Shown here one piece after another: positions 19,640-58,623 of a DNA stretch of 64,000 nucleotides. Position 1 is the stretch's first letter. Each line of letters starts with the position of its first letter. The position numbers and the translations under genes are program-made. Source of the stretch: an uncultured Anaerolineae bacterium (lineage in GTDB: Bacteria; Chloroflexota; Anaerolineae; VGOG01); assembly GCA_964510205.1 (NCBI GenBank), contig CAZEBW010000004.1, positions 3,638-67,637 of the forward strand, written 5' to 3'. Below the pieces are notes generated by a model. It saw only the letters and a list, made by a program, of their open reading frames with translations. It searched no databases and was not told the DNA's origin.

Positions 19640-19665
19640 GGCACTCCTGCCGATTGCATCTTGTC

Positions 19666-27880: not shown

Positions 27881-27922
27881 CAGCCTGAAGTTTACCAGAT
27901 TGTGGATGAATAGTCAAGACGG

Positions 27923-34815: not shown

Positions 34816-34890
34816 GTGATTCGTAGGTTCGTAGATTCGTAAATTCGTGGGTTCGTAGATTCGTAAGTTCGTAGATTCGTGTTACCGACT
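34816..34890. repeat. Tandem array of 8-mers RTTCGTRR x8
   Basis: gattcgtaggttcgtagattcgtaaattcgtgggttcgtagattcgtaagttcgtagattcgtg. Confidence 0.9.
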
Positions 34891-38448: not shown

Positions 38449-38580
38449 GGGTTCGTAGATTCGTAAATTCGTAAATTCGTAAATTCGTAGATTCGTAGAT
38501 TCGTGGGTTCGTGGATTTGATCCCGAATTTATGAGTCCCGAGTCTACGAATCTACCAGTTTCACGTTTCACGTTTTACGG
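38449..38580. repeat. Composite repeat block: TTCGTAR x9 direct, inverted partial copy, then TTTCACG x3
   Basis: gttcgtagattcgtaaattcgtaaattcgtaaattcgtagattcgtagattcgtgggttcgtgg ... tctacgaatctac ... tttcacgtttcacgttttacg. Confidence 0.9.
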
Positions 38581-38814: not shown

Positions 38815-38888
38815 GCGCCGCGACGTCATGTGATGAAGCCGCCGCGACGTCATATGATGAAGCGGCCTCGACGTCATATGATTAAGCG
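38815..38888. repeat. 24-nt tandem repeat x3 (GCCGCGACGTCATRTGATGAAGCS) with internal GACGTC / CATATG palindromes
   Basis: Read directly between the remnant ORF and the GT-C gene. Confidence 0.8.
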
Positions 38889-40990
38889 GCCTCGTCAATC
38901 AGGTGGGTGAAGATGGTGTAATCGGTGTCCATCTCTGCCTCAGCTCGCCAGTAGAGGGTCAGGTGGATCTCCTCGTCTGGCCTAAGCTCGACTTTGTCCA
39001 CTTTGTATCCGATCAGAGTGACCTTGTTATCCAGGTTGAAATCCAACGGGTTATCAATCGCTACCTCCCGACGTTCTCGCGGGAGCATCTTCAACTGACC
39101 GATGACGACGCTTGGGGGATCAAGTTTTGAACCAGTGGTGGGGTCGTAGTGCCCCACCTCAACTCGCACGAGGCTGGGCGCTTGGGCGTCCTCGCTGATG
39201 GGCAGCCGATAGGCGTCGGCGATGATCCCCCCTGGGGCCCACAAGCTGGTGGGATACGAACCCCAACCGGGATAGGTGTCCTCAGATCCCACTAGTTCGC
39301 CCCCGCGCCCCAGCAGGTGGATAAACAGGTAGTAGTCCTTCTCCTCCATCTCCGCCAGCCCCTGCCAGTAGAAAGTGACGCCCAGCGTCTCGCCCGGCCT
39401 GACCGTCTCTCTATCTAGTTTGAAACCGAGCAGTCGGATTTTCTCTCCAAAATCGTGGACCACCCCTGGCGGGACCTCGCTGGGGGAGACGATGGGCGGC
39501 CTGGCGTAGGCAGGGTGGATGTAGACAAATGGACAGAGGGCGGCGAAGGCGAACATGGCCAGACCTATCACCGTCACCAGGATGTTAACGTATCTCCCAG
39601 ATACCAGTTGGCTCAGGCCCAGCATCAGCAGGACGGATATGGCGGAGATGGCGGGAAATAGCAGCCGTCCCTGGCTGGCGGGCGTCGTCCACGTCCAGCG
39701 AACTAGTCCCGCGAAGACGATGCCCAGCCAGAGGATGAGGACAAAGAAACCAGGTTTTTCCCGTTTCACAGTACTTCCCTGGGCGTTTGGAGTGTTCGTA
39801 AACTGGTGTGTTTTGGGTCCAAAGGATGCGAAAAACCTGGTTTCTGACAACCAACGCCGTCTCACAAACCAAATCCCCAAGCCCACCAGGGCCAGCAAGC
39901 TTACCACGTCCAGGATGGCGTAGGCGGCGGGCGCAACCAAGATGCTGAACCAGCCAAACAGCGCCCAGAAAGACATGCGCAGGCCCCGAAACTCGCCCCA
40001 CAGTTCTGACAGATTCGATGGCCCACTATCTCGGCCCACCACGGCCAGCATGGCGTTGAGGCCGGTCGGGTCCCCGTAAAGCTGCCAATTCCTGACGTAC
40101 CACCAGCCAGCCACCGCCAGCACTACGGCAAGGACGATCAGCCCCCCGATCAACGGCCTCGCCGACCGGCGGCGGTAGGCTTGCACGACGAGGACGACGG
40201 CGGTCAAGATCAACAGGCCCAGGCCGCTGAGCTTGGAGAGGCAGGCCAAACCTAGGACGAGGCCCAACAACACGTAATACGCAATACGCAATACGAACAG
40301 GCGGCGTGTTGCGTACTGCGTATTGCGTATTTCGTATTGCGTATTGCGTACCAACAGAAGCAGCGTCAGTGACGATAGGAAGACCACTAGATTGTCGTTG
40401 TTGATGGAGCTGCTGATGAACAAGAACTGCGGGATGAAGGCGTTGATGGCTGCGGCGCCGAGGGCGAGGTGTTCGCGGTCAGGGAAGACCTCCAGAGCGA
40501 GTCTATGCGTCAAGAACACGGTGCCTGCCCCCAGGAGCACCGACAGCAGGCGGACGAGGTGCACCGCCAAAGCTGTGCCCTGAAAGGGGAAACTCTCCCG
40601 CCGGGTATGGACGATCACGTTCTTGTTGCCTGCATCCAGCGGCGTGCCGACGTTGCGCTGGGGATTGTACCAGAGTAGGTCCTCCGCCTCGCTGGTATCG
40701 CTCCAGAAAGTGGTCAGTGCGCCGATCAGGTAATACAGAGGCGGCTGGCTGCCCTCCTGCTCCCACAATCCCGGCTCTTCGGGGTTCTGCACCGGCAGTC
40801 CCTTCCCATCAGCAAGATGCTTGATGAAGAAGTAGTGGTAGATCTCATCGGGCGCCTCGAAGATGGGCGTGACCAGGCTGTAGGTGATGCCCAGGGCGAT
40901 GAACGTGGTTAGAATTAGGGTTATGGCCCAGTGTTGTCTCATAGTGCAAAGTCCTACGTCCCACGTCCTACGTCTCACGTCCGAAGTCAT
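38882..40990 (-). CDS. PMT/ArnT-like GT-C glycosyltransferase (GT39/GT83-like), paralog 1, with 2 C-terminal beta-domain repeats
   Basis: ~12 TM N-terminal domain with loop-1 motif FEAPDEIYHY; C-terminal repeats ...LTLYWQ...DYxxFxHL...; N-terminus and an internal site encoded by heptamer arrays. Confidence 0.6.
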   Translation of the reverse strand: MTSDVRRRTWDVGLCTMRQHWAITLILTTFIALGITYSLVTPIFEAPDEIYHYFFIKHLADGKGLPVQNPEEPGLWEQEGSQPPLYYLIGALTTFWSDTSEAEDLLWYNPQRNVGTPLDAGNKNVIVHTRRESFPFQGTALAVHLVRLLSVLLGAGTVFLTHRLALEVFPDREHLALGAAAINAFIPQFLFISSSINNDNLVVFLSSLTLLLLVRNTQYEIRNTQYATRRLFVLRIAYYVLLGLVLGLACLSKLSGLGLLILTAVVLVVQAYRRRSARPLIGGLIVLAVVLAVAGWWYVRNWQLYGDPTGLNAMLAVVGRDSGPSNLSELWGEFRGLRMSFWALFGWFSILVAPAAYAILDVVSLLALVGLGIWFVRRRWLSETRFFASFGPKTHQFTNTPNAQGSTVKREKPGFFVLILWLGIVFAGLVRWTWTTPASQGRLLFPAISAISVLLMLGLSQLVSGRYVNILVTVIGLAMFAFAALCPFVYIHPAYARPPIVSPSEVPPGVVHDFGEKIRLLGFKLDRETVRPGETLGVTFYWQGLAEMEEKDYYLFIHLLGRGGELVGSEDTYPGWGSYPTSLWAPGGIIADAYRLPISEDAQAPSLVRVEVGHYDPTTGSKLDPPSVVIGQLKMLPRERREVAIDNPLDFNLDNKVTLIGYKVDKVELRPDEEIHLTLYWRAEAEMDTDYTIFTHLIDEAA
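40268..40347. repeat. In-frame inverted heptamer arrays (CAATACG x3 / CGTATTG x5) inside a GT-C CDS
   Basis: taatacgcaatacgcaatacgaacaggcggcgtgttgcgtactgcgtattgcgtatttcgtattgcgtattgcgta; encodes RNTQYEIRNTQYATRR. Confidence 0.85.
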
Positions 40991-41035
40991 TGACTTAGGA
41001 CCTCGGACTTAGGACCTAGGACTATTCTCACTTTG
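40921..41035. repeat. Inverted heptamer arrays (GTCCYAC x4 / GGACYTAG x4) spanning a GT-C stop/start junction
   Basis: gtcctacgtcccacgtcctacgtctcacgtccgaagtcattgacttaggacctcggacttaggacctaggac. Confidence 0.85.
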
Positions 41036-43332
41036 CTCAACAGGATTCGGTTGCCCATCAGCCGGCCGTCCTGGTCGAGGAGGTCTAAGCGATTCCCGGT
41101 CTCAGCCAGGTAGAGCCCCACCTCGATCTCGTAGACGTCGGGAGGGGCGTCGGGGGCGATGTCTAGCTCGTATTGGTCCACGACGATTTGCCCCCTGGCC
41201 CAGGCGGAAGTGGAAGGCTGCGGCTGGCGGTCCGCTCCTGCCCAGATCTGATCTCCCTCTCTCAGCAGGTGGACGAAGACGGTGTAGGCGTCCCTCATCT
41301 CGGCCAGGCTCTGCCAGTACAGAGTAAGGTGGATGGCTTCGCCCGGCTCGGCCTTTCTGCGGTCCATCTCGTAGCCCACCAGGGCGATCTGGCCCCCAAA
41401 GTTGAAATGCACCGGATTGGGCAGCCCGGTTTCGGACCTGGGCAAGACCCCGATTTTCCCGAAGCGCACGTTATCTCCCGCAAGTTCTCCATTGGCCCCG
41501 TACACGGGTAGGCGTTCGCCCGTCGCAGCGTCGTAAGGCCCCACCTCCAGTTGGGCCGAACTGGGGGCGTAGGTCGTCTCTGGCAGCGTCAGGGTGTAGG
41601 CGTCCGCGATGGCGTCGCCGGCCTGCCACAGCGTGGTAGGGAAGCTGCCCAGTCCGGGGAAGGTGTTCCTCTGGGCTATGACGAGATCGTTTTCGTCCAG
41701 CAGGTGAACGAAGACGGCGTAGTCCCGGTTCATCTCGGCCAGGGATTGCCAGTACAGGGTGACGGTTAGCGAATCGCCGGGTTGCAGGTTGTAGGTTGTA
41801 GGTTGCAGGTTGTAGCCCAGCAGCTTCATCACTCCGCCGAAGTTCATATCCAGGCGATTTGGGATGGCCTCGATCTGTTCGGGAGAGAGCAGGGGCGGCC
41901 TGGCGTAGGCTGGGGCGATGTAGGCCACGGGACAGATGCAGGCGAACACGAACATCGCTCCGGCCAGCAGGGCTGTGGCCTTGCCTCGCCAGCGGGTGGG
42001 AATGAGTTGTAACCATCCCAGCAGGGGCAGGATGGCGAGGGACGCAGTGGCTGGGAAGAGGTGCCGCCCAGAGGGTGCAAAGACCCACTGCAGCCAGCGC
42101 AGCAGGGCGGCGAAGACCAGTAAGCTCCACAGCAGGAGCAGGGCTAAGCCCTGCCATGTGTCATTGCGAGGAGCGGAGCGACGAAGCAATCTCCTCCTTG
42201 CGGCTTGGGGATTGCTTCGCTTCGCTCGCAATGACACATCCGTGAGTTTGGTCCCGTTTCTAACGACTAGAACTAACAGCCCCAGGGCGCCCAGGCGCAC
42301 CACAATTCGCAGGACGGTGTAGATCCAAGGGTGGACGTGGACATTGCCCCAGCCGAAGGCGGCCCAAAAGGACAGCTCCATCTGAGAGAACTCGTGGATC
42401 AACTCGCCGAGGGTGAGCTGCGGCCGGCCGGGGCCCACGATGGCTTGGTGGATCTGCACCCCCAGCGGGTCGCCGTGCAATCGCCAATTCAAAGTATACC
42501 ACCATCCGGCTACGATGGCAACAACAGCAAAGACGATCAGGCATGCCTTGAGAAAGGCCCACCCAGAGCCTCTGCGCCAGGCGGCCATGGCGATGGCCAC
42601 GACCGCAGCAGGCAGCAGGGCCAGCGCGCTCGCTTTGGTGATGAGGGCCAATCCCACGGTCAGCCCCAGCCAGACCAGACGGCGGGTGGAGAGGCCCCTT
42701 CTCCTCAGGCGGACCATGAGCCACAGGGCCAGGGTGCACAGGGCCGACACTGCGCTGTCGTTGCTCACTGCACTTGATATAAAGATGAACTGCGGATTGA
42801 AGGCCACCAGGCCCGCTGCACCAGCGGCGAAAGAACGTTGCCGGGGGAACAACTCCAGCGCAATCAGATAGGTGGCCAAGACGGTGGTTGCTCCCCAGAG
42901 CACCGACACCAGGCGGGCCATACGAACGGCCAACACCGCGCCGCGATAGGGGAAGCGTTCCTCGTTGGTGTGAAGCACTCGGTTTTTGTTGTCGTTGACC
43001 GTGCCAGGCGCGCTGTAGCCCCAGAAAGGATTGAGCCACGCCAGGTTCTGCCAATCGTCGTCTTCGATCCAGAACGTAGCCAAAGCCGCCGTGACATAAT
43101 ACAGTGGGGGCTGGGTGGCCTCCTGTCTCATCAGAGGCTGCGTTTGCGCCAGGCTCTGCACCGGCAGACCTTTCCCGTCGCCCAGCCATTTGACGTAAGG
43201 GTAATGCCACAACTCGTCGGGCTTCTCGAAGAGGGGCGTGGCTGCGTTGTAGGCGATGCCCAGGGCGAAAAACGCGGTTAGGATTAGGATGATGGCCCAA
43301 TGTTGTTTGATGGTCCGAGGTCCCCTATCCAT
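40987..43332 (-). CDS. PMT/ArnT-like GT-C glycosyltransferase, paralog 2, with 3 C-terminal repeats
   Basis: FEKPDELWHYPY loop motif; contains in-frame GGTTGTA repeats (TYNLQPTTYNLQP) and the palindromic element (SLRAKRSNPQAARRRLLRRSAPRNDT). Confidence 0.6.
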   Translation of the reverse strand: MDRGPRTIKQHWAIILILTAFFALGIAYNAATPLFEKPDELWHYPYVKWLGDGKGLPVQSLAQTQPLMRQEATQPPLYYVTAALATFWIEDDDWQNLAWLNPFWGYSAPGTVNDNKNRVLHTNEERFPYRGAVLAVRMARLVSVLWGATTVLATYLIALELFPRQRSFAAGAAGLVAFNPQFIFISSAVSNDSAVSALCTLALWLMVRLRRRGLSTRRLVWLGLTVGLALITKASALALLPAAVVAIAMAAWRRGSGWAFLKACLIVFAVVAIVAGWWYTLNWRLHGDPLGVQIHQAIVGPGRPQLTLGELIHEFSQMELSFWAAFGWGNVHVHPWIYTVLRIVVRLGALGLLVLVVRNGTKLTDVSLRAKRSNPQAARRRLLRRSAPRNDTWQGLALLLLWSLLVFAALLRWLQWVFAPSGRHLFPATASLAILPLLGWLQLIPTRWRGKATALLAGAMFVFACICPVAYIAPAYARPPLLSPEQIEAIPNRLDMNFGGVMKLLGYNLQPTTYNLQPGDSLTVTLYWQSLAEMNRDYAVFVHLLDENDLVIAQRNTFPGLGSFPTTLWQAGDAIADAYTLTLPETTYAPSSAQLEVGPYDAATGERLPVYGANGELAGDNVRFGKIGVLPRSETGLPNPVHFNFGGQIALVGYEMDRRKAEPGEAIHLTLYWQSLAEMRDAYTVFVHLLREGDQIWAGADRQPQPSTSAWARGQIVVDQYELDIAPDAPPDVYEIEVGLYLAETGNRLDLLDQDGRLMGNRILLSKVRIVLGPKSEVLSQ
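42157..42238. repeat. Palindromic repeat element, copy 2, inserted in frame inside a GT-C CDS
   Basis: atgtgtcattgcgaggagcggagcgacgaagcaatc...gattgcttcgcttcgctcgcaatgacacat. Confidence 0.75.
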
Positions 43333-43583
43333 AGTCCATAGTCCTAGGTCCGATGGAAGGCGGCCTCGGACCTAGCGCGATTTCACAAAACAGGCATTGA
43401 TTCTTGAGACAGCGTCCGCCAGGGGCTCCGCTGCGCTCAAGCCCCTGGCTCAGTCTACAAAGCCCCCGCTGGGGCTGGGGTCGTCAGGCCGCAGGCCTTT
43501 GTACCTGAGCCCGGCGGCTTCAGCCCCGGGCGGAGTGGCGGCGGAGTCAACCTTTGTTGTGTGATGCAGTGCTAGGCTTGGAT

Positions 43584-45926
43584 TTATTTGACTCGTACTT
43601 TGCTCAACAGCACGCGGTCGTCCAGCAGCCGCCCGCCCTCCCCCACGATTCTCAGGCGGTCGCCTGTCTCCGCCAGGTAGAAGCCTATCTCGACGTCGTA
43701 CACGTCGGCGGGAGTGTCGGCATAGATGGTAAGTTCGTATTCGTCCACTATCGTCTGGCCGGGCTGCCAAGTCGAAGTGGGGGACTTGCCGTCCAGGGGC
43801 CAGCTATCCTCTTGGGCCCAGATGCGGTTCTCTTCTCCCAAAACGTGGGTGAACACGGAGTAGTCTTCTTTCATGTCAGCCAGCCCCTGCCAGTAGAGGG
43901 TCAGGTGGATGGTCTCGCCGGGCGCGGCCGTCCGTCGGTCCATATCGTATCCGACGAGGGCGATCTTGTTTGCGAAGTTGAAGTGGACGGGGTTGGGCGC
44001 CTCTGCTTCAGCTCGGGGCAGGATCTCGAATTGGTGGAAGCGGACGTTGTCGCCCAGGGCCTCTCCATTGGGAGCGTAGGCCGACAGCCGCTCCCCGGTG
44101 TCGAAGTTGTAGAGTCCCACGGCCAGTTGGGCTTGGTTGGGGGCGAAGGCCGTCTCTGGCAGGATGAGGACGTAGCGGTTGGCGATGGCCTCTCCTGGCG
44201 ACCAGAGGCTGGTGGGATAGAGGCCCTGTCCGGGGTACATGTCTCGTTGGGCGACGATGAGCTCGGTTTGGTCGAGCAGGTGGACGAAGGTGCTGTAGTT
44301 CTCGTTCATTTCGGCCAGGGCTTGCCAGTAGAGGGTGACCTCCAGTGAATCGCCAGGTTTCAGGTGACTGGGTATTGGGTATTGGGTATTGGGTATTGCG
44401 TAGCCTAGCAGCTTGATCACTTCGCCGAAGGAGACGTCGAGGCGGTTGGGGATGGCCGCGATCTCTGCTGGTGAGAGGGGTTGGGGTTTGGCGTAGGCGG
44501 GGGCGATGTAGCGGAAGGGGGTGGCGGCGGCGATGATGAACATCAGGCTGCCCAGCAGGCAGGCCAGCGTTTTGGTGTAAGCGAAGCGGCGGTTTTTGTA
44601 AGCGAAGCGACGGCGTCGGGGCACGAACTGGCTCAGGCCCAAGAAGAGCAGGATGGAGAGGGCCGAGATAGCTGAAAAGACCAGTCGCCCTTGAGAGGAC
44701 CAGGTCAGCAGCGCCCAGCGGATCAGGGATATGAACACGATGGCCGGCCAGGCCAGCAGCAGCGCTACTTTGATCCAGGCCTCTGGCCGTGGTTTGTCTC
44801 CAATCAATTTGCGAATCAGGAAGGCGATCACCCCCAGGGCGGCTGCTATGGCCATGAGATTCAGCAGGTCGTAGACCCAGGCATCCATGGGCACGTTCAC
44901 CCCGCCGAACAGGCCCCAGTACGACATGGCGAAGCCCTCACGCTCCCCCCACAATTGACGGAGGGTGGCGGGCGGGTGGCGCCGGCCCAGAATGTCCAGG
45001 AACACGTTTAGCCCCAGGGGGTCGCCGTAGAGCTTCCAATTCCTGACAAACCACCAGCCTGACAGGAGTGCAGCCAGACCCACCACGATGAGGCCGCCTT
45101 GCAGGAGAGTTCGCCAGGAGCGTTGACGGTAAGCAGCGTAGGCGACGGTCAGGCCCGCCAGCGCCAGGAGACCGATGGCGCTCTCTTTGGTCAGGATGGC
45201 CAATCCTATGACCAGCCCCAGCCATGCCCAATCGCGGTTTGCGGTTTGCGGTTTGCGATTTGCGATTTGTGGTTTGCGATTTGTGATTTTGACCATCATC
45301 AGCAGGGCCAGGCTGCACAAGGGCACCACCAAGTTGTCGTTGTTGATCGCGCCGCTGACGAACAGGAACATGGGAGTGAAGGCGTTGACGGCGGCTGCGC
45401 CCAGGGCCAAGTCCTCGCGGCCGGGGAAGATCTCCAGAGCGAGCAGGTAAGTCAGCAGCACCGTGGCCGCTCCCATCAACACCGAGAGGAAGCGTATGAG
45501 GTGCACGGCCAGGGCCGTCCCATGCCAGGGGAAGGCCTCTTGTTCGGAGTGTATGACCAAATTGGTGTTGCCGTCGGCGGTCAGCACGCCGTTATCCACG
45601 TGGGGGTTGGGCCATAACAGGGGCGGCTGGCCGTGGTAGGCGTCGTCGGTGTCAATCCAGAAAGTGGCCAGGGCGCCCAGGGCGTAGTACAGGGGCGGCT
45701 GGCTCCCCTCCTGCCGCCAGGGCTGATCAATGCCGGGATCCTGCACGGGTAGACCGTGGCCGTCCGCCAGGTGCTTGACGAAGGGGTAGTGCCACAACTC
45801 GTCGGAGGCCTCGAAGATGGGTGTGACTACGCTGTAGGCAACGCCCAGGGCGATAAACGTGGCCAGGATGAGGGCGATGGCTAAAGGTTGTAGGTTGTAG
45901 GTTCTAGATTTTAGGGTTGCGTTCAT
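43584..45926 (-). CDS. PMT/ArnT-like GT-C glycosyltransferase, paralog 3
   Basis: FEASDELWHYPF motif; in-frame heptamer insertions at 44361-44400 (GGTATTG; AIPNTQYPIPS), 44575-44610 and 45225-45290 (GCGRTTT; KITNRKPQIANRKPQTANRD). Confidence 0.6.
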   Translation of the reverse strand: MNATLKSRTYNLQPLAIALILATFIALGVAYSVVTPIFEASDELWHYPFVKHLADGHGLPVQDPGIDQPWRQEGSQPPLYYALGALATFWIDTDDAYHGQPPLLWPNPHVDNGVLTADGNTNLVIHSEQEAFPWHGTALAVHLIRFLSVLMGAATVLLTYLLALEIFPGREDLALGAAAVNAFTPMFLFVSGAINNDNLVVPLCSLALLMMVKITNRKPQIANRKPQTANRDWAWLGLVIGLAILTKESAIGLLALAGLTVAYAAYRQRSWRTLLQGGLIVVGLAALLSGWWFVRNWKLYGDPLGLNVFLDILGRRHPPATLRQLWGEREGFAMSYWGLFGGVNVPMDAWVYDLLNLMAIAAALGVIAFLIRKLIGDKPRPEAWIKVALLLAWPAIVFISLIRWALLTWSSQGRLVFSAISALSILLFLGLSQFVPRRRRFAYKNRRFAYTKTLACLLGSLMFIIAAATPFRYIAPAYAKPQPLSPAEIAAIPNRLDVSFGEVIKLLGYAIPNTQYPIPSHLKPGDSLEVTLYWQALAEMNENYSTFVHLLDQTELIVAQRDMYPGQGLYPTSLWSPGEAIANRYVLILPETAFAPNQAQLAVGLYNFDTGERLSAYAPNGEALGDNVRFHQFEILPRAEAEAPNPVHFNFANKIALVGYDMDRRTAAPGETIHLTLYWQGLADMKEDYSVFTHVLGEENRIWAQEDSWPLDGKSPTSTWQPGQTIVDEYELTIYADTPADVYDVEIGFYLAETGDRLRIVGEGGRLLDDRVLLSKVRVK

Positions 45927-48900
45927 TGCACTTGCACCTTGCTCAACAGAATGCGGTCGCCGGGCAAAGGTTCGCCCTGTTCATCGAAAGCGGGAAGTCG
46001 CTGCATGGTCTCCAAATCGTACATCCCCACTTCGATCTGGTACTCGCCGGCCGGTGCGGCCGCGTCCACGATGATCTCGTATTCGTCTACCACGACCTCG
46101 CCGGGAAGCCAGCTCGTCGTCGGATGCGCGCCCCTCATGGGAAGGTTATCTTTTTGCCCCCAGGTGCGATTCTGGGCGTCTACGAGGTGGGTGAAGACGG
46201 TGTAGCTGGTCTCCATTTCTTGCTGTAAGCGAAGCGGCGCTTGCCAGTAGAGGGTGAGGTGCAGCGTGCCGCCTGGCTTCACGGTGGTCTTGTCGAGATC
46301 GTAGCCGAGGAAGGCCACCTTGTCAGCCAGGTTCGCTCGCAAGGGATGTTGGATGTCGGTGGGCGCGGTGAAAAGCCGCTCAGGGGCGATTACCGACAAT
46401 GTCGCCAGAGGTTGGAAGTCGGAAGTTGGAGATTGGAGGTTGGAAGGTTGAATTTTGAAGTTTAAGCTTTGCTCGCCCGTTGGAGCAGCGGCATCAACCG
46501 CCAGGTCGTATTGGCCGCGAATGACCTCGCCTTCCTTCCAGCGGCTGGTGGGGTATTCTTCGTTGGCCAATGGGAACTCTCCCCTGGCCCAAACGTTTCC
46601 CGTGCTGTCTTGCATCTGTAGATGAAGGCGGTAGTCGCTTTCCATCGAGCGCAGCGCCCGCCAGAAGAGCGCGGCTCGCATTGTCTCCCCCGCCCGCGCT
46701 TCGGTGGACGACAGGTCGTAGCCCAGGAGTTCCACCTGGCCGTCGAAGTCGTGACGCAGGGGGTGGGGGATGGCCAGCTCCTCGATGGTCGGCGGCACGC
46801 TGGGGCTGGCTACGGCGACTGTCCCCAAGGCGTACTCCGTACCCGCTGGCGCGTTCCTTTCGTCCAAGATGCGCAGGCTTTGCAGCGTGTCCACATCATA
46901 AACGACCAGCTCCACTTGATAGCGGCCCGGCGGGATGCCAGGCAGCAGGGAGAGGGTATGATGCCTCTCCACGATCCCGCCCACCTCCCAGGCATAGGTC
47001 GCCAGGCCGTCTTCGTTCTCCAGCCATTCGTCTGTTTGGCTCCAAAGGCGCCCCTGTTCGTCCACCAGGCGGAGGGAGAGGGCGTAGCCCTCCTGCATCT
47101 GCGCCTGGGTCTCCCACCGAAGGGCGACCCCCAACTGCTTTCTGTACTCGATGATGTCCCCGGTGAAGCCGTGGCCCGTCAGCCGCAAGCGGTTGCCGAA
47201 ATTGACGTTAGCCTGGACCTGGATGGGGCTCAAATCCAGGTCCAGAGGAGAGGTGAGGAGATAGCGAGAGACGGTGGTATGGGGAAGGGCCTCTCGGCCG
47301 ATGAGCAGGGCATGGGTATTCAGTTGGTAACTGATCCAATTGCCCATATCGCTTTCTGGGTAGGCCACGTACCATAGCTGTCGGGGCGCGGCGGACTCTG
47401 TTAGCTTGTCGGTCATGTCGGTCCAGCCCTGGCTATCGGAGACGACGTAGTAGGTCAGCGGCCCTTGATAATGCTTGACGAAGGGCGAGTCGGCGTCGAG
47501 CAGCACGACGTCGTCCGGCTGAGCCTGGCTCTCCAAATAGGCGATCAGCTCTTGGTAGTAAGTGTTGGGATAGATCCAGGCGTAGTCCACGCCGCGAATC
47601 TTGACCACGTGCTCTGGCTGCTGTTGACCGTGGAGAGCCGCTGTGACGGGCGAGTCTTGCTGCACATCGCTGACGTAGAGCACGGCGTAATCGGCGGTAG
47701 CTGTGTTGTGCTCCGTCAGTGCTTCCGTCTGGCCCTTGAACAGGGGGGCGAACCCTGGGATGTCCCAGGTGGCAACGCGAAGGTCTGTTGCATTCTCCTT
47801 TTGATTCAAATATCTGGCCGCCAGATCCATGCCCTCGCCCCAGCCCGCGGGCAGGATTTGGATGGCTCTGGATGTGCCGCCCAGCAGGGGGTTGGCGTAG
47901 GCCAGATAGTAGGGATGGTAGGGCAAGGCGAGAGCAGCCTGGAGGAGCACCACTAAGCTCAGAGCCAGCTCGATCCCCCATCTCCAATGCCTGGATAGGA
48001 AGGCTTCGATGAAATAGACCCACCCAACAGCGGCCAGGATGTCAAGGGCCAGAAAGGCGGGCAATAGATACCGCTCGAACTTCTTGGCCCCCACGGCCAG
48101 AGTGATCGTGACCAGGGAAACGTAGACGAGCAGGGCGAGTACCTCGAACCACTTCGAACCTCTTTTCTTTACGATGGCCCAAAATGCTGCTGCCAGTAGG
48201 CCCAGCCAGACGAGGGGCGTCGTCCTGAAGAGCAGGCTGAAGGGATAGAACCAGGGGCCTGGGTCGGAGACGGACTGACCGAGGAAGAAGTTGACGGGGT
48301 GAGGGGTGGCGGCGAAGCGGTGGGCGAGTCCGAAGGTGCCGCGCAGGGTCTCGACGGGAGAGACCCACATAGCTGGCCAAAGGGCCACAAAAGCGATAAC
48401 CGCTACCATGCACCACACCGAGAGGGACCGTAGCGAACTGAAAATCGGCTTGGCCCACGCCTGCCCTGAGCCTTGTCCTGAGGCCGCTTCGCCTACAGTC
48501 GAAGCGTGTCGCCGGAGGATTGCCGACTTCGTGAGACCCTCGAAGCTGAGCAAAAGGGCGGCGAAGGGTAGCAGAGCGAAGGCGGTGGCCTTGGTCAGAA
48601 AGGCCAGGCCGGCTAGGCACCCTGAGAGGCCGAGGTAAACAAGGGAGCGATTATGCCTCAGGTAGACGAGAAGGCTCAGGACGGACAGGATCATCAGGTT
48701 GGCCGCCGCCCCGTCGGTGTGGAAGACTCGCGAATGGGCCAGGTGGAAGGGGTCGAAGCAAATCAAGAGCGCGGCCAGGAGGGCCACCCTCCCCCCGAAG
48801 AGTTTCCTGGTCAGGAGGTATACCCCCACCGCGCTCGCTGCGCCGAGGAGAACGAGTGGGAGCTTGGCTGCCACCAGGAAGAGGGCCAGGCGGCGCAGGG

Positions 48901-49234: not shown

Positions 49235-49276
49235 CTCCGAGGTAATGCGTTTCTCCCGCTATTCTTGTGCCTGCTC

Positions 49277-50302
49277 TCAATCTGGCTCTGCGGTGAGGGC
49301 TGAGCTCTCAACGGCAGCCTCGTGCGAAGCGCCTGCCCGCTCAATCAACTCAAATCCTTCCCGCGAGAGATAGAAGTAGCCCAAGGCCAGGGGGAGTATG
49401 TGAGTGGCCCGAAAAAGGAGGGCGAAGGCTAGTGCATCGCTCCTGTCGGCGGAGAAGACCGCGAGTATGCCGGCGAAAACGAATTCCAGAGTACCCACTT
49501 TGCCAGGCAGAGCCGGGACGAGGCTTGCCAAGTTGAAGATGACCAGCAGAAGGACATAGATGTATCCGGACAGGGATATGCCTAACGAGGCGCCGGTCAG
49601 AAGAAAGGTGATCAGCATAAGAGACCAAGCCGAAAACGATAGAAGGACTGAGAGCGCCATCCCTCTTCCCTCTTTCAAAATCAACATCCCTTTGCTGAAG
49701 GAGGCCAACAGGTTCTTGGCTTTGGAGGCCAGAGAGGGAGAGATTTTGGCCAACCCCGTGGTCAGCAGATGGGTGATGTCTTCCCCTCGGTGATACCAGC
49801 TCGCCAGGAGAAGGAGGCCGACGGCAAATAGAAGGCCGGCCAGACCACCCACGTACATGATCCAGTCGGGCAGCGGGAAAAGACGGAGGAGCACCAGCAG
49901 GCCAAAGAGTAGAATCAGCACATCGAGCATCCTCTCCACGACGATGGTCGCCAGAACCGTGCTGGTCCGCAGGCTTTCCCCTCTTGCCAGCGCGAAAGCG
50001 CGCAACAACTCGCCCGATTGGACGGGTAGAAAGTAGTTGCCGAAATAACCAATCAAAATCCTGGGCAGCAGAATGCGGACCCTCAAATCCTTAACCGGCC
50101 TGAGAAGATACTTCCAACGGGCGGCTCGCAAGCCGAAAGCCCCCAGGCGAAGCAAATTGGCCAGAACCAGATAGGAGTAGTCAGCTCCTCGCAGGGCCAA
50201 CGCGAGCTTTCCCGCCTCGATATTTCTCACGACCAGGAACAATAGGAGAAGGCTGATTCCAGTTCCGATCAGCAGCCGATATCTTTTCACCGTCAACCCC
50301 AA
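49277..50302 (-). CDS. Flippase-like domain protein (UPF0104 / lysylphosphatidylglycerol-synthase TM-region family)
   Basis: 341 aa, 8 TM, N-terminal KRYRLLIGTGISLLLLFLVV. Confidence 0.55.
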   Translation of the reverse strand: MGLTVKRYRLLIGTGISLLLLFLVVRNIEAGKLALALRGADYSYLVLANLLRLGAFGLRAARWKYLLRPVKDLRVRILLPRILIGYFGNYFLPVQSGELLRAFALARGESLRTSTVLATIVVERMLDVLILLFGLLVLLRLFPLPDWIMYVGGLAGLLFAVGLLLLASWYHRGEDITHLLTTGLAKISPSLASKAKNLLASFSKGMLILKEGRGMALSVLLSFSAWSLMLITFLLTGASLGISLSGYIYVLLLVIFNLASLVPALPGKVGTLEFVFAGILAVFSADRSDALAFALLFRATHILPLALGYFYLSREGFELIERAGASHEAAVESSALTAEPD

Positions 50303-51981: not shown

Positions 51982-51995
51982 ATCAGATCAATCTC

Positions 51996-53678: not shown

Positions 53679-53848
53679 ATCTTACCTCAGTGGACGGATT
53701 ATAGACGAAAGCGTGGGTAAAGTCAATGCAGGCCAAACAGCATTTTCCCCCTCGTTGTAGAGGGGGATGACGATAGATCCGTCTGCTTTCACCTCTGCGA
53801 CCCTCCCGCAGACTCTGAGCCTGCGGGAGGGTGTTATTGGCTGTCGGT

Positions 53849-56074
53849 CTATGGCCCGAAGTTCTTGAGCACCAGCGGCAAATAGACGTGGTAGGCGGAT
53901 GTCGGCGTTGTCGTGGATGTGGCAGTGCTGGTTGCGGTAGGCGTAGGTGTGCGGGTGGCCGTTGGTGTGTTGGTCAGCGTTGGAGTCAGCGTGTTTGTAG
54001 GCGTTGGTGTGTTAGTCGGTGTTGAGCTTGGCGTGGCGGTAGAGGTTGATGTAGAGGTGGGCGTCGGCGTAGGCTCGTCTGTGATGCGCAAGATGAGGAG
54101 GCCACCTGCGTTATCGGCCACGTAGACGTAGTCCCCGGCCACCTGAACGCCTCTGGCATCGCCGGGCGTGTCAAAGGCCCCAACTTCGATGGGATTTTCC
54201 TTGTCAGCCACGGAGACGATCCGCAGGCCAGCGCTTCCATAGGCCACGTAGGCGAGGTTTCCTACGACCTGAACGTCGAAGGCCCAGCCACGGATGTCAA
54301 ATGAGCCGACCTCGGTGGGATGGGCCTTGTCGGCCACCGAGATGATCCGCAGACCGCCCCCCCGATCGGCGACGTAGGCATAACTGCCAGCCACGTGCAC
54401 ACCGCTTGCCCGGTCGGGTGTATCGCAGAAGCCTTCCTCTGTAGGATTGGCCTTGTCGGCAATGGAGATGACGCGCAGCCCGCTTTCTCCGTCGGCGACG
54501 TAAGCGTGGTTGCCGACCACGTGCACGCCGCTTGCCTGGTCGGGTGTATCGCAGAAGCCTTCCTCTGTGGGATTGGCCTCATCGGCAACGGAGATGATGC
54601 GCAGCCCGCTTTCTCCATCGGCGACGTAGGCATAAGCCGCTGTCGCTTCCGAGGCCGCTGCCGCTTCGCCCACTACATGAACGCCTTTGGCGTCATCGGG
54701 CGTCTCGGCGAAGCTGACTTCGGTGGGGTTTGCTTTGTCCGAAACGGAGATGACGCGCAGCCCAGCCACGCCATCGGCGACGTAGGCGTAAGCCGCTGCC
54801 GCTTCCGAGGCCGCTGTCGCTTCCGAGGCCGCTTCTGCTTCCGAGTCACCCACCACGTAAACGCCCTTAGCCGAACCAGTGGTATTCCAGAAGCCTTCTT
54901 CTGTAGGATTGGCCTTGTCGGCCACCGAGATGACTCTAAGTCCCTCGTCCCACTCAGCGACGTAGGCATAGTTCACTTCCGAGGCCGCTTCCACATAAAC
55001 ATCCCTTGCCTCGCCAGCGGTGTCGAAGAAGCCTTCCTCTGTCGGACTGGCCTTGTCGGCCACGGAGATGACTCGGAGGCCGCCTGTCTCATCGGCGACG
55101 TAAGCGCGGTTGTCAGCTACGTGAACGTCGAACGCTCGGTCGGGTGTGTCACAGGAACCGACTTCAGTGGGATTCTCCTTGTCGGCCACCGAGATGACCC
55201 GCAGCCCGCCGTAGTTGTGGGCGATGTAGGCATGGTCGCCCACAACGTGGACCTTCCTGGCATAGCCAGATAGGTCCAGATGGCCAGTCTCAGAAGGATT
55301 CTGCTTGTGGGCGACTGAGATCACCCGCAGACCTCTATCCCAATTGGTGACGTAGGCGTGGGCCGCTCCCGCTTCCGAGTCGTCCATGACGTGAACGCCA
55401 TTGGCCGAGCCTGGCATATCGAAGAAGCCGACCTCGGTGGGGTTGGCCTTGTCGGCGACGGAGATGATCCGAAGCCCTCCGGTTCCAGCAGCGACGTAGG
55501 CGTAGGCTCCCAAAACGTGGACGTCTTCTGCCGAGTCGGGCGTGTAGAGGGAGCCTACCTCGGTTGGATTCGCCTTGTCAGCAACGGAAATGATCCGCAG
55601 CCCGCTCCACTCGTCGGCCAGGTAGGCGTACTCGCCAACGACATGAACGCTGTGGGCACGGTCCAAATCTAGGTGACCTACCTCAGTGGGGTTGCCTTTG
55701 TCGGCAAGCGAGATGATCCTTAGGCCCCCGTCCCCAGCGGCGATATAAGCGTAGGCCGTTTCCACTTCCGAGTCCCCTTCCACGTGGATGTCCCTCACGA
55801 TGCCGGGGAGCGCTTCAGTGCGTCCCATCTCGGTGGGGTTGGCCGGATCGGAGACATCCACGATGACCAGCTTCAGCCCGTTGCCGACATAAGCGTACTG
55901 TCCGGCGACGTGAACGGCGTGAGTCGCTCCCCTAATCTGGCCCACTAACTCCAGCGCCAAACCGTTCTGGGCGCCCTGGGGCGGAAGGGCCAGCCCCGAA
56001 AGGGAAGTGCCCGCCAGGATAAGTGCGAGGCTGATGACGACCGGGGCAATCTTCCAGAGATGTTCTTTGTTCAT
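53849..56074 (-). CDS. Secreted LVIVD-repeat beta-propeller protein with Thr/Pro-rich C-terminal linker and short hydrophobic tail
   Basis: Signal peptide MNKEHLWKIAPVVISLALILAG; ~14 repeats of YAYVAD..GLRVISVADKANPTE (LVIVD motif at LKLVIVDVSDPANPTEMG); PT-rich segment; ends AYHVYLPLVLKNFGP. Confidence 0.7.
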   Translation of the reverse strand: MNKEHLWKIAPVVISLALILAGTSLSGLALPPQGAQNGLALELVGQIRGATHAVHVAGQYAYVGNGLKLVIVDVSDPANPTEMGRTEALPGIVRDIHVEGDSEVETAYAYIAAGDGGLRIISLADKGNPTEVGHLDLDRAHSVHVVGEYAYLADEWSGLRIISVADKANPTEVGSLYTPDSAEDVHVLGAYAYVAAGTGGLRIISVADKANPTEVGFFDMPGSANGVHVMDDSEAGAAHAYVTNWDRGLRVISVAHKQNPSETGHLDLSGYARKVHVVGDHAYIAHNYGGLRVISVADKENPTEVGSCDTPDRAFDVHVADNRAYVADETGGLRVISVADKASPTEEGFFDTAGEARDVYVEAASEVNYAYVAEWDEGLRVISVADKANPTEEGFWNTTGSAKGVYVVGDSEAEAASEATAASEAAAAYAYVADGVAGLRVISVSDKANPTEVSFAETPDDAKGVHVVGEAAAASEATAAYAYVADGESGLRIISVADEANPTEEGFCDTPDQASGVHVVGNHAYVADGESGLRVISIADKANPTEEGFCDTPDRASGVHVAGSYAYVADRGGGLRIISVADKAHPTEVGSFDIRGWAFDVQVVGNLAYVAYGSAGLRIVSVADKENPIEVGAFDTPGDARGVQVAGDYVYVADNAGGLLILRITDEPTPTPTSTSTSTATPSSTPTNTPTPTNTLTPTLTNTPTATRTPTPTATSTATSTTTPTSAYHVYLPLVLKNFGP

Positions 56075-56099
56075 CTTTCCTTCCATTCGCTTCTCTTGC

Positions 56100-57305
56100 T
56101 CAGGTGATCTGATCTTGCAGAACTCTCTCGTAAAGCGCACCTGTTTTCTCAGCGATCTTCTCCCAGGTGAAGCTCTGGGCTAGTCTGGCCGCCCCCTCGC
56201 CCAGGCGCCGCCGCAGCTCGGCGTTCGACGCCAGTCTGGCAATGGCCTCGGCCAGCGCGACCGGGGCGTCGGGGGGGACGAGGAGGATGTTCTCTCCATG
56301 CACAAGCTCAGGCACGTCCGCTCGTGGGCGGGTGCTGACGGTGGGCAGGCCATGGGCCAGGGCGGCCATGAAGCTCCCCCGCCGGAACGAGGCCCCGTCC
56401 CGGTAGGGCAGCACGCAGATGTCGGAGGCCAGCAAGTTGGCTGAGACCTCGGCCTGGGGAGTGTAGCCCGTCCAAAACACGCTATCCGTCAGGCCCAGCT
56501 CCGCGATCAAACCTTCGACCCTCTTCAGATAGGCCAGGTTGGTGGGATCGCTGGAGCCTACTTTGCCCCCTACCATCATCAGTTGGAGGTTGGAGGTTGA
56601 TTGCATCAGCCTAGCCAGGGCACGTATCAGGGTTTCGGCTCCTTTGCTCTTGTTGAGGAAGCCGAAGTAGGAGAGCAGGATGTCATCCGGTCCCACGCCC
56701 CAACGGGCTCGCCAGGCCTCGCGGTCGTAGTCCGCCGGCGGTGCGGGGCTGATGTTGGAGCCGATGGGGATCAGCGATAGGGAGCGGATGGACGAATAAT
56801 CGGACAGCCTGGCGAAATCCTCGGCGTTGGTGGCGATGACGGCGTCGCTCCAGCGGGCCAGGGCCAGGTTCACCCACCAGCGCAGGGGGCCGGCTTTGGG
56901 GAAGAGGTAGGGCACCTTTAGATCGTGGAAGGTGACTACGGTCAACGGATGGTCTTTGGAAGAACGGGACGCGAGGCGCAGCGGCAGGAGATTGATGGCC
57001 GGGTGCATGTCGTAGGCGGCTGTCTGGTATTGGATGTTGACGATGTCGGAGCGGGTCTCGTTCAGTAGCTCGATGATGCGTCGCCAGGAGCCCCAATCCC
57101 ATTTCTCGATGATAGGGAAAAGGGACAAGTGACCAGTGACAAGGGGCAGCCCTGATCCCTTGTCCCTAGTCCCTAGTCCCTTGACCGAGGTGATAACGCT
57201 GACCTCAACTCCCAGCTCGGCCAGCGCCTTACCCAGCTCGTTGGTGAAATCTCCCACACCGCCTTGCATGGGTGGGAACTCGCCGCTGATTAGACACACT
57301 TTCAT
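56100..57305 (-). CDS. Glycosyltransferase family 4
   Basis: MKVCLISGEFPPMQGGVGDF... GT-B fold with E-x7-E region; in-frame heptamer insertions at 56575-56600 and 57140-57180. Confidence 0.8.
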   Translation of the reverse strand: MKVCLISGEFPPMQGGVGDFTNELGKALAELGVEVSVITSVKGLGTRDKGSGLPLVTGHLSLFPIIEKWDWGSWRRIIELLNETRSDIVNIQYQTAAYDMHPAINLLPLRLASRSSKDHPLTVVTFHDLKVPYLFPKAGPLRWWVNLALARWSDAVIATNAEDFARLSDYSSIRSLSLIPIGSNISPAPPADYDREAWRARWGVGPDDILLSYFGFLNKSKGAETLIRALARLMQSTSNLQLMMVGGKVGSSDPTNLAYLKRVEGLIAELGLTDSVFWTGYTPQAEVSANLLASDICVLPYRDGASFRRGSFMAALAHGLPTVSTRPRADVPELVHGENILLVPPDAPVALAEAIARLASNAELRRRLGEGAARLAQSFTWEKIAEKTGALYERVLQDQIT

Positions 57306-57546
57306 GCTTCGGTCCTGCTTTCGAGAACACGGATGTACAGGGTAGTCCCCCTCTTGGGTGTTGTTGATTGGCCCTCGGTCTGAAGACCTCGGCTGATACA
57401 GGAAATCCGTTGAAACGGATTCAGAACAAATGCGATTTATCGCATTTTATGTCTCAGCCGGGCAATTCATTGCTCGGCAAGGCCAGCAACACTCTACGGG
57501 GGGACTACCGAGTACAGGATTTACGGATTTTGCCTCAAGCTGGGTA

Positions 57547-57586
57547 GCTTCAGTAGATCGCGGTCGCTCCCGTTGAATTGCCAAAC
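57547..57586 (-). other. Conserved ~40-nt motif, copy 2 (see 36865-36905), followed by two perfect hairpins
   Basis: gcttcagtagatcgcggtcgctcccgttgaattgccaaacc; nearby aatccgttgaaacggatt and aaatgcgatttatcgcattt hairpins at ~57400-57460. Confidence 0.4.
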
Positions 57587-57603
57587 CGACTGAGCTTGAT
57601 CCG

Positions 57604-58623
57604 TTAATCCTGCGAATCCGCCGTTATCCTCCCTAACACTTGCCAATACGACTTAATCCGCGCTGCTCGCAGCGGTCGCTTGTGCCCCACCAGCCACTTG
57701 AGGGCTTCTACGATCAGTTGATAGAAATAGGTGACTAGGATAAACAACCGCAACGCCTCTGCTTGCCACGGGCCGTGATGCTTGCGGAAATAGCGGATTT
57801 TGCTGCGCTGGAATTGGATGTGCTGGAAGGATTTGACCTGCTCGCTCGATTGCCCCCCGTGGTGGACCACTTTGGCCGTGGACAGGTAGATTATCTTCCA
57901 GCCTCGCTCCTGGGCTCGACGGCACCAATCCAATTCCTCAGAGTACATGAAGAAGCCTTCGTCTAGTGGCCCCACCTGTTCGATGGCCTCGCGGCGGGCC
58001 AGCAAGCAGGCTCCAGTGACCCAGTCCACCTCTTGCACCTCGTCGTCCGGGCGGTCTGCGATGTAGTAGCGTCCGGCGACGCGGTTGTGGGGGAACCACT
58101 GCTGCATGATCGTGCTTTCCAGGAAAGCGGTGGTCAGGGTCGGGAAGCGGCGGCGCGAGGACTGGATGCTGCCGTCGGGGTTCAGGAGCTGCGGCCCCAG
58201 CGCGCCCACTTGAGGATGCTCGTCCATGTACTCGACCATCGTCGCCAGCGCGTCGCCGACCACTTCCGTGTCCGGGTTCAGCAGCAGGACGTATCGCCCC
58301 CGGCTGACGGCGATGCCCTGGTTGTTGCCCACGGTGAAGCCCACGTTCTCGCGGTTGGCGATGAGCCGCACCTGGGGGAACTCCTTTTCAACCATCGCTG
58401 CGCTGCCATCTGAGGAAGCGTTGTCTACTACGATGACCTCGAGCCGGAAGTTGGAAGGTGGAAGGTGGAAGATGGAATCGAGACAACGCTTCAGGAGGTC
58501 TCGTACATTCCAGTTCACGATCACAATGGACAGATCCATTCTAACCTTCGACCTCCAATCTCCAACCTCTAACCTCCAACCTCCATTTGCTAAGACGGCG
58601 GCTTCTAGGCCGCCGCGTCTCAA
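57604..58623 (-). CDS. Glycosyltransferase family 2 (true start probably MDLSIVIVNWN near 58539)
   Basis: IVNWNVRDLL...VVDNASSDGS; the annotated N-terminal extension is encoded by GGTTGGA-type heptamers. Confidence 0.75.
   Translation of the reverse strand: MRRGGLEAAVLANGGWRLEVGDWRSKVRMDLSIVIVNWNVRDLLKRCLDSIFHLPPSNFRLEVIVVDNASSDGSAAMVEKEFPQVRLIANRENVGFTVGNNQGIAVSRGRYVLLLNPDTEVVGDALATMVEYMDEHPQVGALGPQLLNPDGSIQSSRRRFPTLTTAFLESTIMQQWFPHNRVAGRYYIADRPDDEVQEVDWVTGACLLARREAIEQVGPLDEGFFMYSEELDWCRRAQERGWKIIYLSTAKVVHHGGQSSEQVKSFQHIQFQRSKIRYFRKHHGPWQAEALRLFILVTYFYQLIVEALKWLVGHKRPLRAARIKSYWQVLGRITADSQD
58440..58600. repeat. Inverted GGTTGGA/GGAAGGT heptamer arrays flanking the GT2 start codon (one array in frame inside the CDS)
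   Basis: gaagttggaaggtggaaggtggaagatgg (58443-58472) vs cctccaatctccaacctctaacctccaacctcc (58548-58590). Confidence 0.8.

Follow-up and report, generated by a model that had tools for sequence, protein, structure and literature searches.

The window analysed here comprises 64,000 nucleotides (nt) of an uncultured Anaerolineae bacterium (contig CAZEBW010000004.1) and carries on its minus strand, between 38.5 and 58.6 kb, an envelope-glycan gene cluster in which short tandem arrays of 7-nt units lie in frame within coding sequences. From the Pfam assignments, the cluster contains a Wzy_C-like gene, four GT-C glycosyltransferase genes (PMT_2; GTC1 to GTC4), an LPG_synthase_TM protein, two phosphodiesterases, an LVIVD-repeat protein, a GT4 (Glycos_transf_1) and a GT2 (Glycos_transf_2) glycosyltransferase, and a polyprenyl synthetase. 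The GT-C proteins possess a PMT_2/PMT Pfam domain, an ArnT/PMT/STT3-like fold and an acidic first-loop motif in which E39, D42 and E43 are invariant. Foldseek analysis of an AlphaFold2 model of GTC3 revealed matches of the membrane part to Pmt4, STT3 and ArnT, and of the C-terminal part to tandem beta-sandwiches.

Using Tandem Repeats Finder together with a scan of our own, 18 period-7 arrays were discovered in the window, which makes this the commonest repeat class there. Periods of 5, 6, 8, 9 and 10 nt gave 0–4 arrays each, and 60 second-order Markov simulations yielded a mean of 0.28 period-7 arrays with a maximum of 3; the simulations and the comparison with other periods rule out chance or low complexity as the origin of the arrays. 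Fifteen of the 18 lie in the glycan cluster, where all of the arrays within genes described below are on the minus strand. They consist of head-to-tail units in 2.6–8 copies (mostly 4–5) with 76–96% matches, and most are A/C-rich or G/T-rich, without G-tracts. At least 12 of the 18 are inside reading frames, in departure from the mostly intergenic placement of the known class of heptamer simple sequence repeats (SSRs) and short tandemly repeated repetitive (STRR) sequences. Because the unit length is one more than a multiple of three, an array is read through all three frames in turn and specifies a peptide with a period of seven residues, such as IPNTQYP from (CAATACC)n and KSQIANR from (AAATCGC)n. 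At gene junctions, the arrays provide stop codons, GGAG-type Shine-Dalgarno (SD) motifs and even an ATG.

For comparison, the orthologous cluster was collected from 12 Anaerolineae metagenome-assembled genomes (MAGs) through a scan of GTDB species genomes, at about 70–84% protein identity, together with more distant clusters; individual ones are cited below by L-numbers. The initial annotation had the arrays come in multiples of three units. Across the window and the 12 relatives, copy number is divisible by three in just 20 of 98 arrays within coding sequences, the mode being 4–5 units; steps of three units (seven amino acids) are instead the form in which copy differences between orthologs are clearest.

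Three arrays are read in GTC3. The first, (TACAACC)n with some 3–4 units at 45885–45915, specifies the N-terminal tail MNATLKSRTYNLQP; this tail, which is common to L003 and L015, is probably translated. The second, (AAATCGC/AAACCGC)8 at 45231–45290, specifies the K/R-rich loop KITNRKPQIANRKPQTANRD after helix 197–216. Three copies of its newest unit variant run together at one end, and the orthologs have related units, many with a complementary second arm. The third, (CAATACC)4.9 at 44367–44399, specifies AIPNTQYPIPS in the LLGY...PGD beta-loop, and the tract at 44369–44402 is nearly perfect (96% match). In the AlphaFold2 model, which was built on a 77-sequence alignment and has a mean predicted local distance difference test score (pLDDT) of 86 and a predicted TM-score of 0.85, residues 1–10 form an unstructured N-tail (pLDDT 42), the K/R-rich loop joins helices 197–216 and 226–246 (pLDDT 71–85) and is predicted to be cytoplasmic, and the beta-loop 511–520 lies between strands 504–510 and 527–536 (pLDDT 61). 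The arrays inside genes were found only in tails and loops, and the GTC3 model bears out the initial expectation that the inserts occupy loops or termini. Another GTC3 loop holds a 21-nt tandem duplication that is not heptameric (44571–44612; RRFAYKN RRFAYTK); most orthologs lack it, and L012 has it in part.

GTC2 contains (TACAACC)5 at 41779–41814 in its own LLGY...PGD beta-loop, read as YNLQPTTYNLQP, where the orthologs have other units. At its C-terminus, (GTCCTAR)n at 40990–41022 provides a 10-residue extension (VLGPKSEVLSQ and the stop codon; the orthologs end in ...LLSKVRV[EK]), and a mini-array, (GGACTAT)2.4 at 43328–43344, holds its ATG; GTC2 orthologs have array-coded N-termini of the GLRTMDWGLRT type. 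In GTC4, (TCCAACY)n at 46409–46459 is read as FKIQPSNLQSPTSDFQP, and the same site reads FKLQTSNLQPPTSNFQ in the L005 ortholog and FQLPTSNFQ in that of L008. The peptides quoted in the initial annotation do lie in long minus-strand open reading frames (ORFs) at the places given for them, with two corrections: FQPPISNFRLP in GTC4 should be FKIQPSNLQSPTSDFQP, and TYNLQPTTYNLQP in GTC2 should be GYNLQPTTYNLQPGD.

The frames had also been described as intact, which does not hold for GTC1. Its ORF, 38882–40990, ends at an in-frame TAA (38882–38884) in the first copy of a 24-nt tandem array (3.1 copies, 38817–38891), and beyond it a further 105 or so conserved codons follow in the same frame, up to a stop situated in a heptamer array. 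Some three units of GAAACGT at 38555–38579 specify the end of the GTC1 frame, both its final residues (...TVKRET) and its stop codon. The TAA takes the place of TCA in the other 24-nt copies, a point nonsense change. In L012 the ortholog has the insert of three times eight residues intact, and the orthologs of L007 and L008 are without it; the truncation appears to reflect either recent pseudogenisation or an error in sequencing. The GTC2 ortholog of L007 (15724–18187) has a 19-residue insert with a 24-nt unit, LSKGAREQGSKGAREQGSY, in a conserved segment; it resembles the 24-nt array of GTC1 and is present in no other ortholog.

Upstream in GTC1, at 40265–40348, two heptamer arrays face each other as an inverted pair. 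Arm 1 (40301–40348), made up of AATACGC units, specifies the loop RNTQYEIRNTQYATRR, and arm 2 (40265–40300) specifies LFVLRIAYYVLL, the start of the next transmembrane (TM) helix. A further array, (GGACGTR)n at 40943–40990, is situated between the GTC2 stop and the MRQHWAI of GTC1, and is either an N-terminal tail of GTC1 (MTSDVRRRTWDVGLCT) or an intercistronic leader, both candidate ATGs, including that of MTSDV..., having a plausible SD sequence. One GTC1 loop (ETRFF...EKPGFF, 39745–39845) contains in frame an element of another kind, a perfect 16-nt inverted repeat (AGAAACCAGGTTTTTC / GAAAAACCTGGTTTCT) around 69 nt, which resembles a miniature inverted-repeat transposable element (MITE) and is found in L008 and L012 and not in L007.

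In the GT4 protein, (CTCCAAC)2.6 at 56580–56599 specifies TSNLQL (amino acids 237–242), a tract equal in length to the same region of array-free homologs and 14 amino acids longer in L005. An imperfect inverted pair at 57114–57182 specifies KGLGTRDKGSGL (57147–57182) and PLVTGHLSLFP, in a loop that is 5–8 amino acids longer than in L013 and L011. In GT2, (CTTCCAC)n at 58438–58477 specifies FHLPPSNFRLE (58438–58470; amino acids 52–62), again without a net gain in length against array-free homologs. Taken together, the GT2 and GT4 tracts at amino acids 52–62 and 237–242 have thus replaced sequence rather than inserted it, and in L005, L007 and L022 these tracts are 10–14 residues longer. Just upstream of the probable GT2 ATG at 58539 is (GGAGGTT)5–6 (58546–58585), which is SD-like and partly complementary to the array at 58438–58477. 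The N-terminus MRRGG...RSK, formerly proposed for GT2, begins at a TTG that is merely the start of the longest ORF; homologs begin 0–2 residues before DLSIV, where the window has an ATG, which most probably makes the (GGAGGTT)n array a 5' leader. Two further palindromic features were noted nearby: the intergenic stretch upstream of GT4 contains an inverted repeat, imperfect and 33 nt long (57334–57366 / 57484–57516), and just downstream of the LVIVD gene there is a terminator-like palindrome (53800–53832).

Orthologs, and often paralogs, carry arrays at matching places, with units and copy numbers that differ by genome. Shared sites include the N-tail, the loop after the TM helix ending in ...LLMMV (site ii), the LLGY...PGD beta-loop (site iii), positions near residues 45 and 240 of GT4 and near residue 52 of GT2, and the gene junctions. 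Since arrays stand at matching sites in orthologs of 70–84% identity, most are old hypervariable tracts of the clade and not recent insertions. Short loops without arrays are found at these places in distant homologs and in some paralogs, so that the arrays are derived and lie outside the ancestral protein. Among 120 database homologs, the site iii loop has 8 residues in 63, 9 in 5, 16 in 32 and 23 in 1, a progression in steps of seven, besides a few long hairpin-type versions. The 8-residue form is DLETNEVR-like; ancestral-looking loops such as DLETNEVR and ELETERVK occur in distant homologs, and the latter also in some close orthologs. One tract in a TM helix, (TGGTCAT)3–4, is found in eight relatives; it is absent from the subclade of the window and from the paralogs and is thus derived, the flanks of empty and filled sites being too diverged to separate expansion in situ from insertion. 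We conclude that the arrays arose within this clade, for the most part long ago, and that they continue to change. That they are insertions, as originally proposed, is correct in so far as they are derived relative to array-free homologs; most are not recent, however, and two add no length. The same comparison answers in the negative the question, raised at the outset, of whether they represent ancestral low complexity.

Every ortholog in the 12 relatives gave a single-frame high-scoring segment pair in tblastn, and no frameshift was found at an array. Within the clusters of close relatives, period-7 arrays occur at 56 per 100 kb and arrays of every other period at fewer than 4; individual close-clade clusters have 2–11 arrays per 10 kb, and the homologous clusters of other Anaerolineae about none. 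Other contigs of those MAGs have about 11 per 100 kb, some five-fold below the density in the cluster. The nearest protein in a set of 5.8 billion sequences is 82% identical, and a Logan contig of SRR7048218, the sole other contig found, encodes an identical GT4 protein. In L005, L007 and L008 an additional GT-C paralog is present between GTC3 and GTC2, where the window has a 250-nt gap (43333–43583); it is about 60% identical to GTC3, and its site ii is array-free (PLVETPISMKRSV).

Several of the arrays form inverted pairs, a feature absent from the initial annotation, and at three such sites the sense-strand RNA folds far better than shuffled sequences. These are 40255–40360 in GTC1 (dG -48 kcal/mol, z -6.0), 40940–41030 (dG -39.6 kcal/mol, z -4.7), whose loop holds the AUGA in which the GTC2 stop and the GTC1 start overlap, and 57105–57190 in GT4 (dG -43.5 kcal/mol, z -4.3). 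The GT2 leader array and the intragenic array, which enclose the start codon, can pair across about 100 nt (z -2.25), and single arrays form no RNA structure (z near 0). Rfam gave no match to a known RNA family anywhere in the window. Within a pair, the CAA-rich arm specifies a polar loop and the complementary TTG-rich arm hydrophobic residues at the start of a membrane helix; the succession of polar loop RNTQYEIRNTQYATRR and helix start LFVLRIAYYVLL in GTC1 follows from this complementarity in hydropathy between sense and antisense. At site ii, arm 2 (LLDIRYWVLG, part of the helix) is conserved, while arm 1 has exchanged its unit in L005 and L007 (ATATCCA to AAATCKC) and left arm 2 unmatched; arm 2 itself is missing in four genomes (the window, L002, L012 and L015). 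Pairing is thus not obligatory. Among eight related genomes, 84% of the alignment cells at site ii pair in register and shuffles do as well (250 of 500), and three pairs with double changes were seen in these eight related sequences (48 of 500 shuffles). The pairing probably reflects how the tracts arise, and selection for it is not demonstrable.

Some units recur at unrelated sites. GAAACGT occurs at 27.9 kb (intergenic), at 29.5 kb (in the N-tail of a GH99-like protein) and at 38.56 kb (the GTC1 C-terminus). GGTTGTA, which had been placed in three GT-C genes, forms arrays at two sites only, 41780–41814 in GTC2 and 45886–45906 in the GTC3 N-tail; the GTC4 unit is related but different (GGTTGGA/GGAAGTY). 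The CCAATAY and CCAACYT families are found at no fewer than six non-homologous sites in GT-C, GT4 and GT2 proteins. Where one genome has the same unit at sites that are not homologous, some copying between sites is implied. Of 51 units, 46 join in one network of single substitutions, a significant excess over random sets of matched composition, which reached at most 37; the figure is partly inflated by the inclusion of orthologous arrays. Intermediates one substitution apart were observed (ATATCCA, ATCTCCA, ATCTCAA, ATCGCAA, ACCGCAA).

Based upon these observations, we propose that copy number would change by replication slippage, with selection retaining the frame-preserving and stop-free outcomes at tolerant positions. 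Units would change through single substitutions that then spread, and new sites might be seeded from existing arrays by template switching, ectopic conversion or a hairpin-dependent step. The encoded peptides would mostly be tolerated passengers rather than functional modules. Slippage combined with copying between sites, in a repeat family of STRR type carried along in genes, is the reading that we favour, if by a modest balance of probability. Several points weigh against it. Slippage alone leaves unexplained both the same unit at unrelated sites and the 5–10-fold concentration in one gene cluster, to which it may be added that two further GT2 genes of the window (9.5–11.3 kb) are array-free. 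The intergenic arrays of 7-mers and 8-mers all end 10–25 nt before an SD sequence and ATG, and the hairpins are very stable (z -4 to -6), both of which hint at a role at the RNA level. Arrays have also kept their places in loops in paralogs and in homologs with as little as about 55% identity, which is long for neutral repeats and may point to selection, and no copying mechanism came to light.

Perhaps the glycan operon uses the arrays and hairpins as cis-regulatory elements which act on RNA or DNA, with the peptides a by-product. Leader arrays might tune initiation through SD-like GGAGG units or sequestration of the SD sequence, and intercistronic and intragenic hairpins might stabilise segments of mRNA or pause ribosomes at the boundaries of membrane helices. 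The three local hairpins, the long-range pairing that brackets the GT2 start, the stop/start overlap of GTC2 and GTC1 within a hairpin loop and the enrichment in the cluster would all fit, as would the intergenic arrays, whose spacing from SD and ATG recalls the TAACTGA repeats of Beggiatoaceae (PMC4679880). So would the homolog in L013 (56% identity), in which the matching loop site holds a hairpin whose sequence is unrelated. Single arrays are unstructured, however, arm 1 has lost its complementarity or arm 2 is gone in the genomes named above, covariation equals that of shuffles, and unit and copy number vary freely between species; we regard such a role as unlikely. Phase variation would make different use of the same tracts, as contingency loci: each 7-nt unit added or removed would put the frame out and so turn envelope glycosyltransferases on or off. 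The unit is indeed not a multiple of three, the genes are of surface-polysaccharide type, some tracts are near-perfect (that at 44369–44402, for example), and heptanucleotide SSRs of H. influenzae, one of them in a frameshifted ORF, have been proposed as mediators (PMC2651432). Most tracts here are short (4–5 units) and imperfect, though, and several lie in one gene, in its middle and at its 3' end. All orthologs in the 12 related MAGs are read through in a single frame, the sole disrupted gene was hit by a point nonsense change in the 24-nt array and not by slippage, and two of the main sites are probably cytoplasmic, so that we consider phase variation quite improbable. The tests supported neither a regulatory role of the hairpins nor phase variation.

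The initial annotation took the arrays to imply a mobile or replicative mechanism tolerant of reading frame. Some copying between sites is implied, as set out above, but no mark of a classical mobile element was seen. A true miniature mobile element, be it of the REPIN, MITE or Nostoc small dispersed repeat (SDR) type, would consist of a hairpin transposed by an enzyme encoded elsewhere, and could account for identical units at non-homologous sites, for the common inverted pairs and for presence/absence differences between orthologs; other small palindromic elements do insert in frame here (the one at 42154–42239 in GTC2, also intergenic at 6385–6478). Against this, many arrays are single-armed, hairpin loops and centres have no conserved core or ends across sites and genomes, no target-site duplications or defined ends were noticed at the arrays where we looked, and stepwise mutation can explain the change of units. 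Neither a transposase nor a reverse transcriptase was found among 38 window ORFs scanned with Pfam; the same ORFs contained no Y1 transposase/REP-associated tyrosine transposase (RAYT), the rest of the genome not having been searched. The intragenic position and the many different units set the arrays apart from repetitive extragenic palindromic (REP) sequences and REPINs, and the conserved 21–27-nt core of the Nostoc SDRs is lacking. Diversity-generating retroelements differ in that they would produce adenine-specific substitutions, whereas variation here is in unit copy number, and, as said, no reverse transcriptase was seen. A mobile element in the strict sense is accordingly an explanation that we hold to be rather unlikely.

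Arrays could finally be ancestral low-complexity linkers with incidental periodicity, or artefacts of assembly, and tracts at the same sites in orthologs of the clade might be taken to suggest the former. The periodicity resides in the DNA (7 nt), the same units are found between genes, and distant homologs and paralogs have short non-repetitive loops, which excludes ancestral low complexity; arrays at the same sites in MAGs independently assembled by many projects, together with the Logan contig, rule out an artefact. Both are highly improbable. A bolder and also unlikely view is that a clade of filamentous Anaerolineae actively writes arrays and hairpins into one glycan operon by a route other than classical transposition, and keeps them for an action on RNA or DNA, whether SD-like leader arrays and intragenic hairpins pace translation or membrane insertion or the glycan enzymes are rapidly diversified.

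Compared with these alternatives, slippage with copying between sites leads us to view the family, with slightly better than even confidence, as lineage-specific short heptanucleotide tandem repeats with a few octamer loci and many convergent inverted pairs, which have built up in one clade of Anaerolineae and most of all in its GT-C/GT4/GT2 cluster. As in known heptanucleotide SSRs and STRR sequences, tandem 7-nt units are present at many dispersed loci, with variation in copy number and sequence between genomes at the same locus. The kind is therefore a known one; what is new is the Chloroflexota host and the heavy, long-lasting occupation of coding sequences, in frame and at fixed loops. 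A further unusual trait is the hairpins whose arms code for a loop and a helix start. Within the library of papers searched, none was found which ties heptamer repeats to Anaerolineae or Chloroflexi.

Additional arrays are present outside the glycan cluster. On the plus strand, (GAAACGT/ACGTCAA)n at 29533–29589, beyond the interval covered by the initial annotation, specifies the N-terminal tail of the GH99-like protein, which is membrane-anchored. A 14-nt (2x7) array of 2.4 copies with 100% match at 28857–28895 is read in frame, as TSTEGRVPRDE, in the plus-strand ORF 28124–29482 (FolC-like, by sequence only), which shows that in-frame arrays reach beyond the glycan cluster. The remaining ones are intergenic or in leaders: (ACGTTTC)n at 27919–27973, with the unit seen at 29.5 and 38.56 kb; an inverted pair (TCAGGGAA, 3.9 copies / CTGATCC, 4.4 copies) at 1761–1836, about 25 nt upstream of the ligA ATG; an octamer array, (GATTCGTA)7.9 at 34818–34880, in the enolase leader on the plus strand, ending about 24 nt before the ATG; and another, (ACGAATCT)8 at 38452–38517, in the leader of the Wzy_C-like gene on the minus strand, ending about 16 nt before the ATG. 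Both octamer arrays represent one unit, GATTCGTA on the plus strand, so that the repeats in the two mRNAs would be complementary to each other. In some homologs an octamer array is also read as protein (NWETGKLV / TNLPIYQS, in P0018 and P0032).

The palindromic element of about 90 nt mentioned above (ATGTGTCATTGCGAG...CTCGCAATGACACAT) is unrelated to the heptamer arrays. Its two copies are the intergenic one at 6385–6478 and the one at 42154–42239, which is in frame in GTC2 and codes for AKRSNPQAARRRLLRRSAPRNDTW; its end motifs were also located in L002, L005, L008, L022, L029 and L044. In the region 12000–26000 the G+C content falls from about 0.60 to 0.50–0.55, and heptamer arrays are absent. 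The region codes for TPR, Band_7, CHAT-response-regulator and Schlafen/AlbA_2 proteins and a histidine kinase with six GAF domains, and may be an acquired signalling or defence-like island.

Dozens of non-triplet repeats are maintained in frame in conserved enzymes throughout this clade, whereas such repeats are reported as rare in the coding DNA of bacteria (PMC4679880, PMC4692102). This amounts to a natural experiment in the invasion of genes by repeats, which marks positions that tolerate inserts with a seven-residue period and in which the two strands of one repeat give a polar loop and a hydrophobic helix start. In practical terms, the tracts distort gene calls through false N-terminal extensions and repeat-supplied starts and stops, and make alignments of Chloroflexota glycosyltransferases seem to contain "hypervariable regions"; strain typing might use them as markers. 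If a regulatory role or active writing were demonstrated, this phylum, abundant and little studied, would have a layer of control or mutagenesis that is new; both together would moreover define a new class of translated, structured, in-frame repeat, possibly related to the heptamers of other filamentous bacteria, namely cyanobacteria and Beggiatoaceae.

The cyanobacterial STRR sequences (Calothrix, Nostoc, Anabaena) are described as mainly intergenic. The arrays described here share with them the tandem heptamers, from a few copies to tens, scattered over many loci, and the presence in one genome of several unit families that are lineage-specific, but differ in that most copies in the cluster are in frame in genes and the host is a member of the Chloroflexota. 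The STRR units CCCCAGT, TTGGTCA and CAACAGT do not occur in tandem in the window, although TTGGTCA arrays are present in relatives. The SDRs of Nostoc punctiforme, ascribed to Elhai et al. 2008, are reportedly nested in heptamer arrays, have a core of 21–27 nt and are suspected of mobility. We know of no enzyme associated with them. Like the arrays of the window, they are very small, go together with heptamer arrays and hairpins and are occasionally found in genes; our arrays have no shared loop core.

Contingency SSRs are also known in the surface-glycan genes of Neisseria. Those of Haemophilus (PMC2651432) resemble our arrays in having non-triplet units in or near surface-glycan or adhesin genes; contingency tracts are long, perfect and frame-switching between strains, whereas ours are short and imperfect, with every examined ortholog in frame and no frame-shifting differences among the 12 relatives. 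REP sequences and REPINs (PMC3116915) are similar as short dispersed inverted repeats that form hairpins, often between the genes of an operon. They are, however, extragenic, conserved and RAYT-linked, unlike these tandem heptamers, which are often intragenic and in whose window no RAYT was seen. The REPIN paper also cites Elhai et al. 2008.

Heptanucleotides are the most abundant class of long SSRs in many bacterial genomes, for which polymerase slippage has been proposed, and SSRs whose unit is a multiple of three are those usual in coding regions, others being rare (PMC4679880, PMC4692102). The GGGNATC SSRs of Xanthomonas and Nostoc (Rehm et al. 2015; PMC4692102) likewise show an under-representation within coding sequences; that paper also cites the heptanucleotide repeats of Calothrix and describes convergent inverted heptamer pairs in Xanthomonas. 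Our arrays have in common with GGGNATC the preference for about four units, the extensive variation in length and sequence among related species at the same locus, the frequent convergent inverted pairs and the location near gene starts and ends, and differ in mostly having no G-tracts and in their abundance in coding sequences. The TAACTGA repeats of marine Beggiatoaceae and some cyanobacteria (MacGregor 2015; PMC4679880), of which the window has no tandem copies, form a family with a single unit that is almost all intergenic and almost never inverted; as with the intergenic arrays described here, these heptamers are located just upstream of gene starts, and in both cases the hosts are filamentous.

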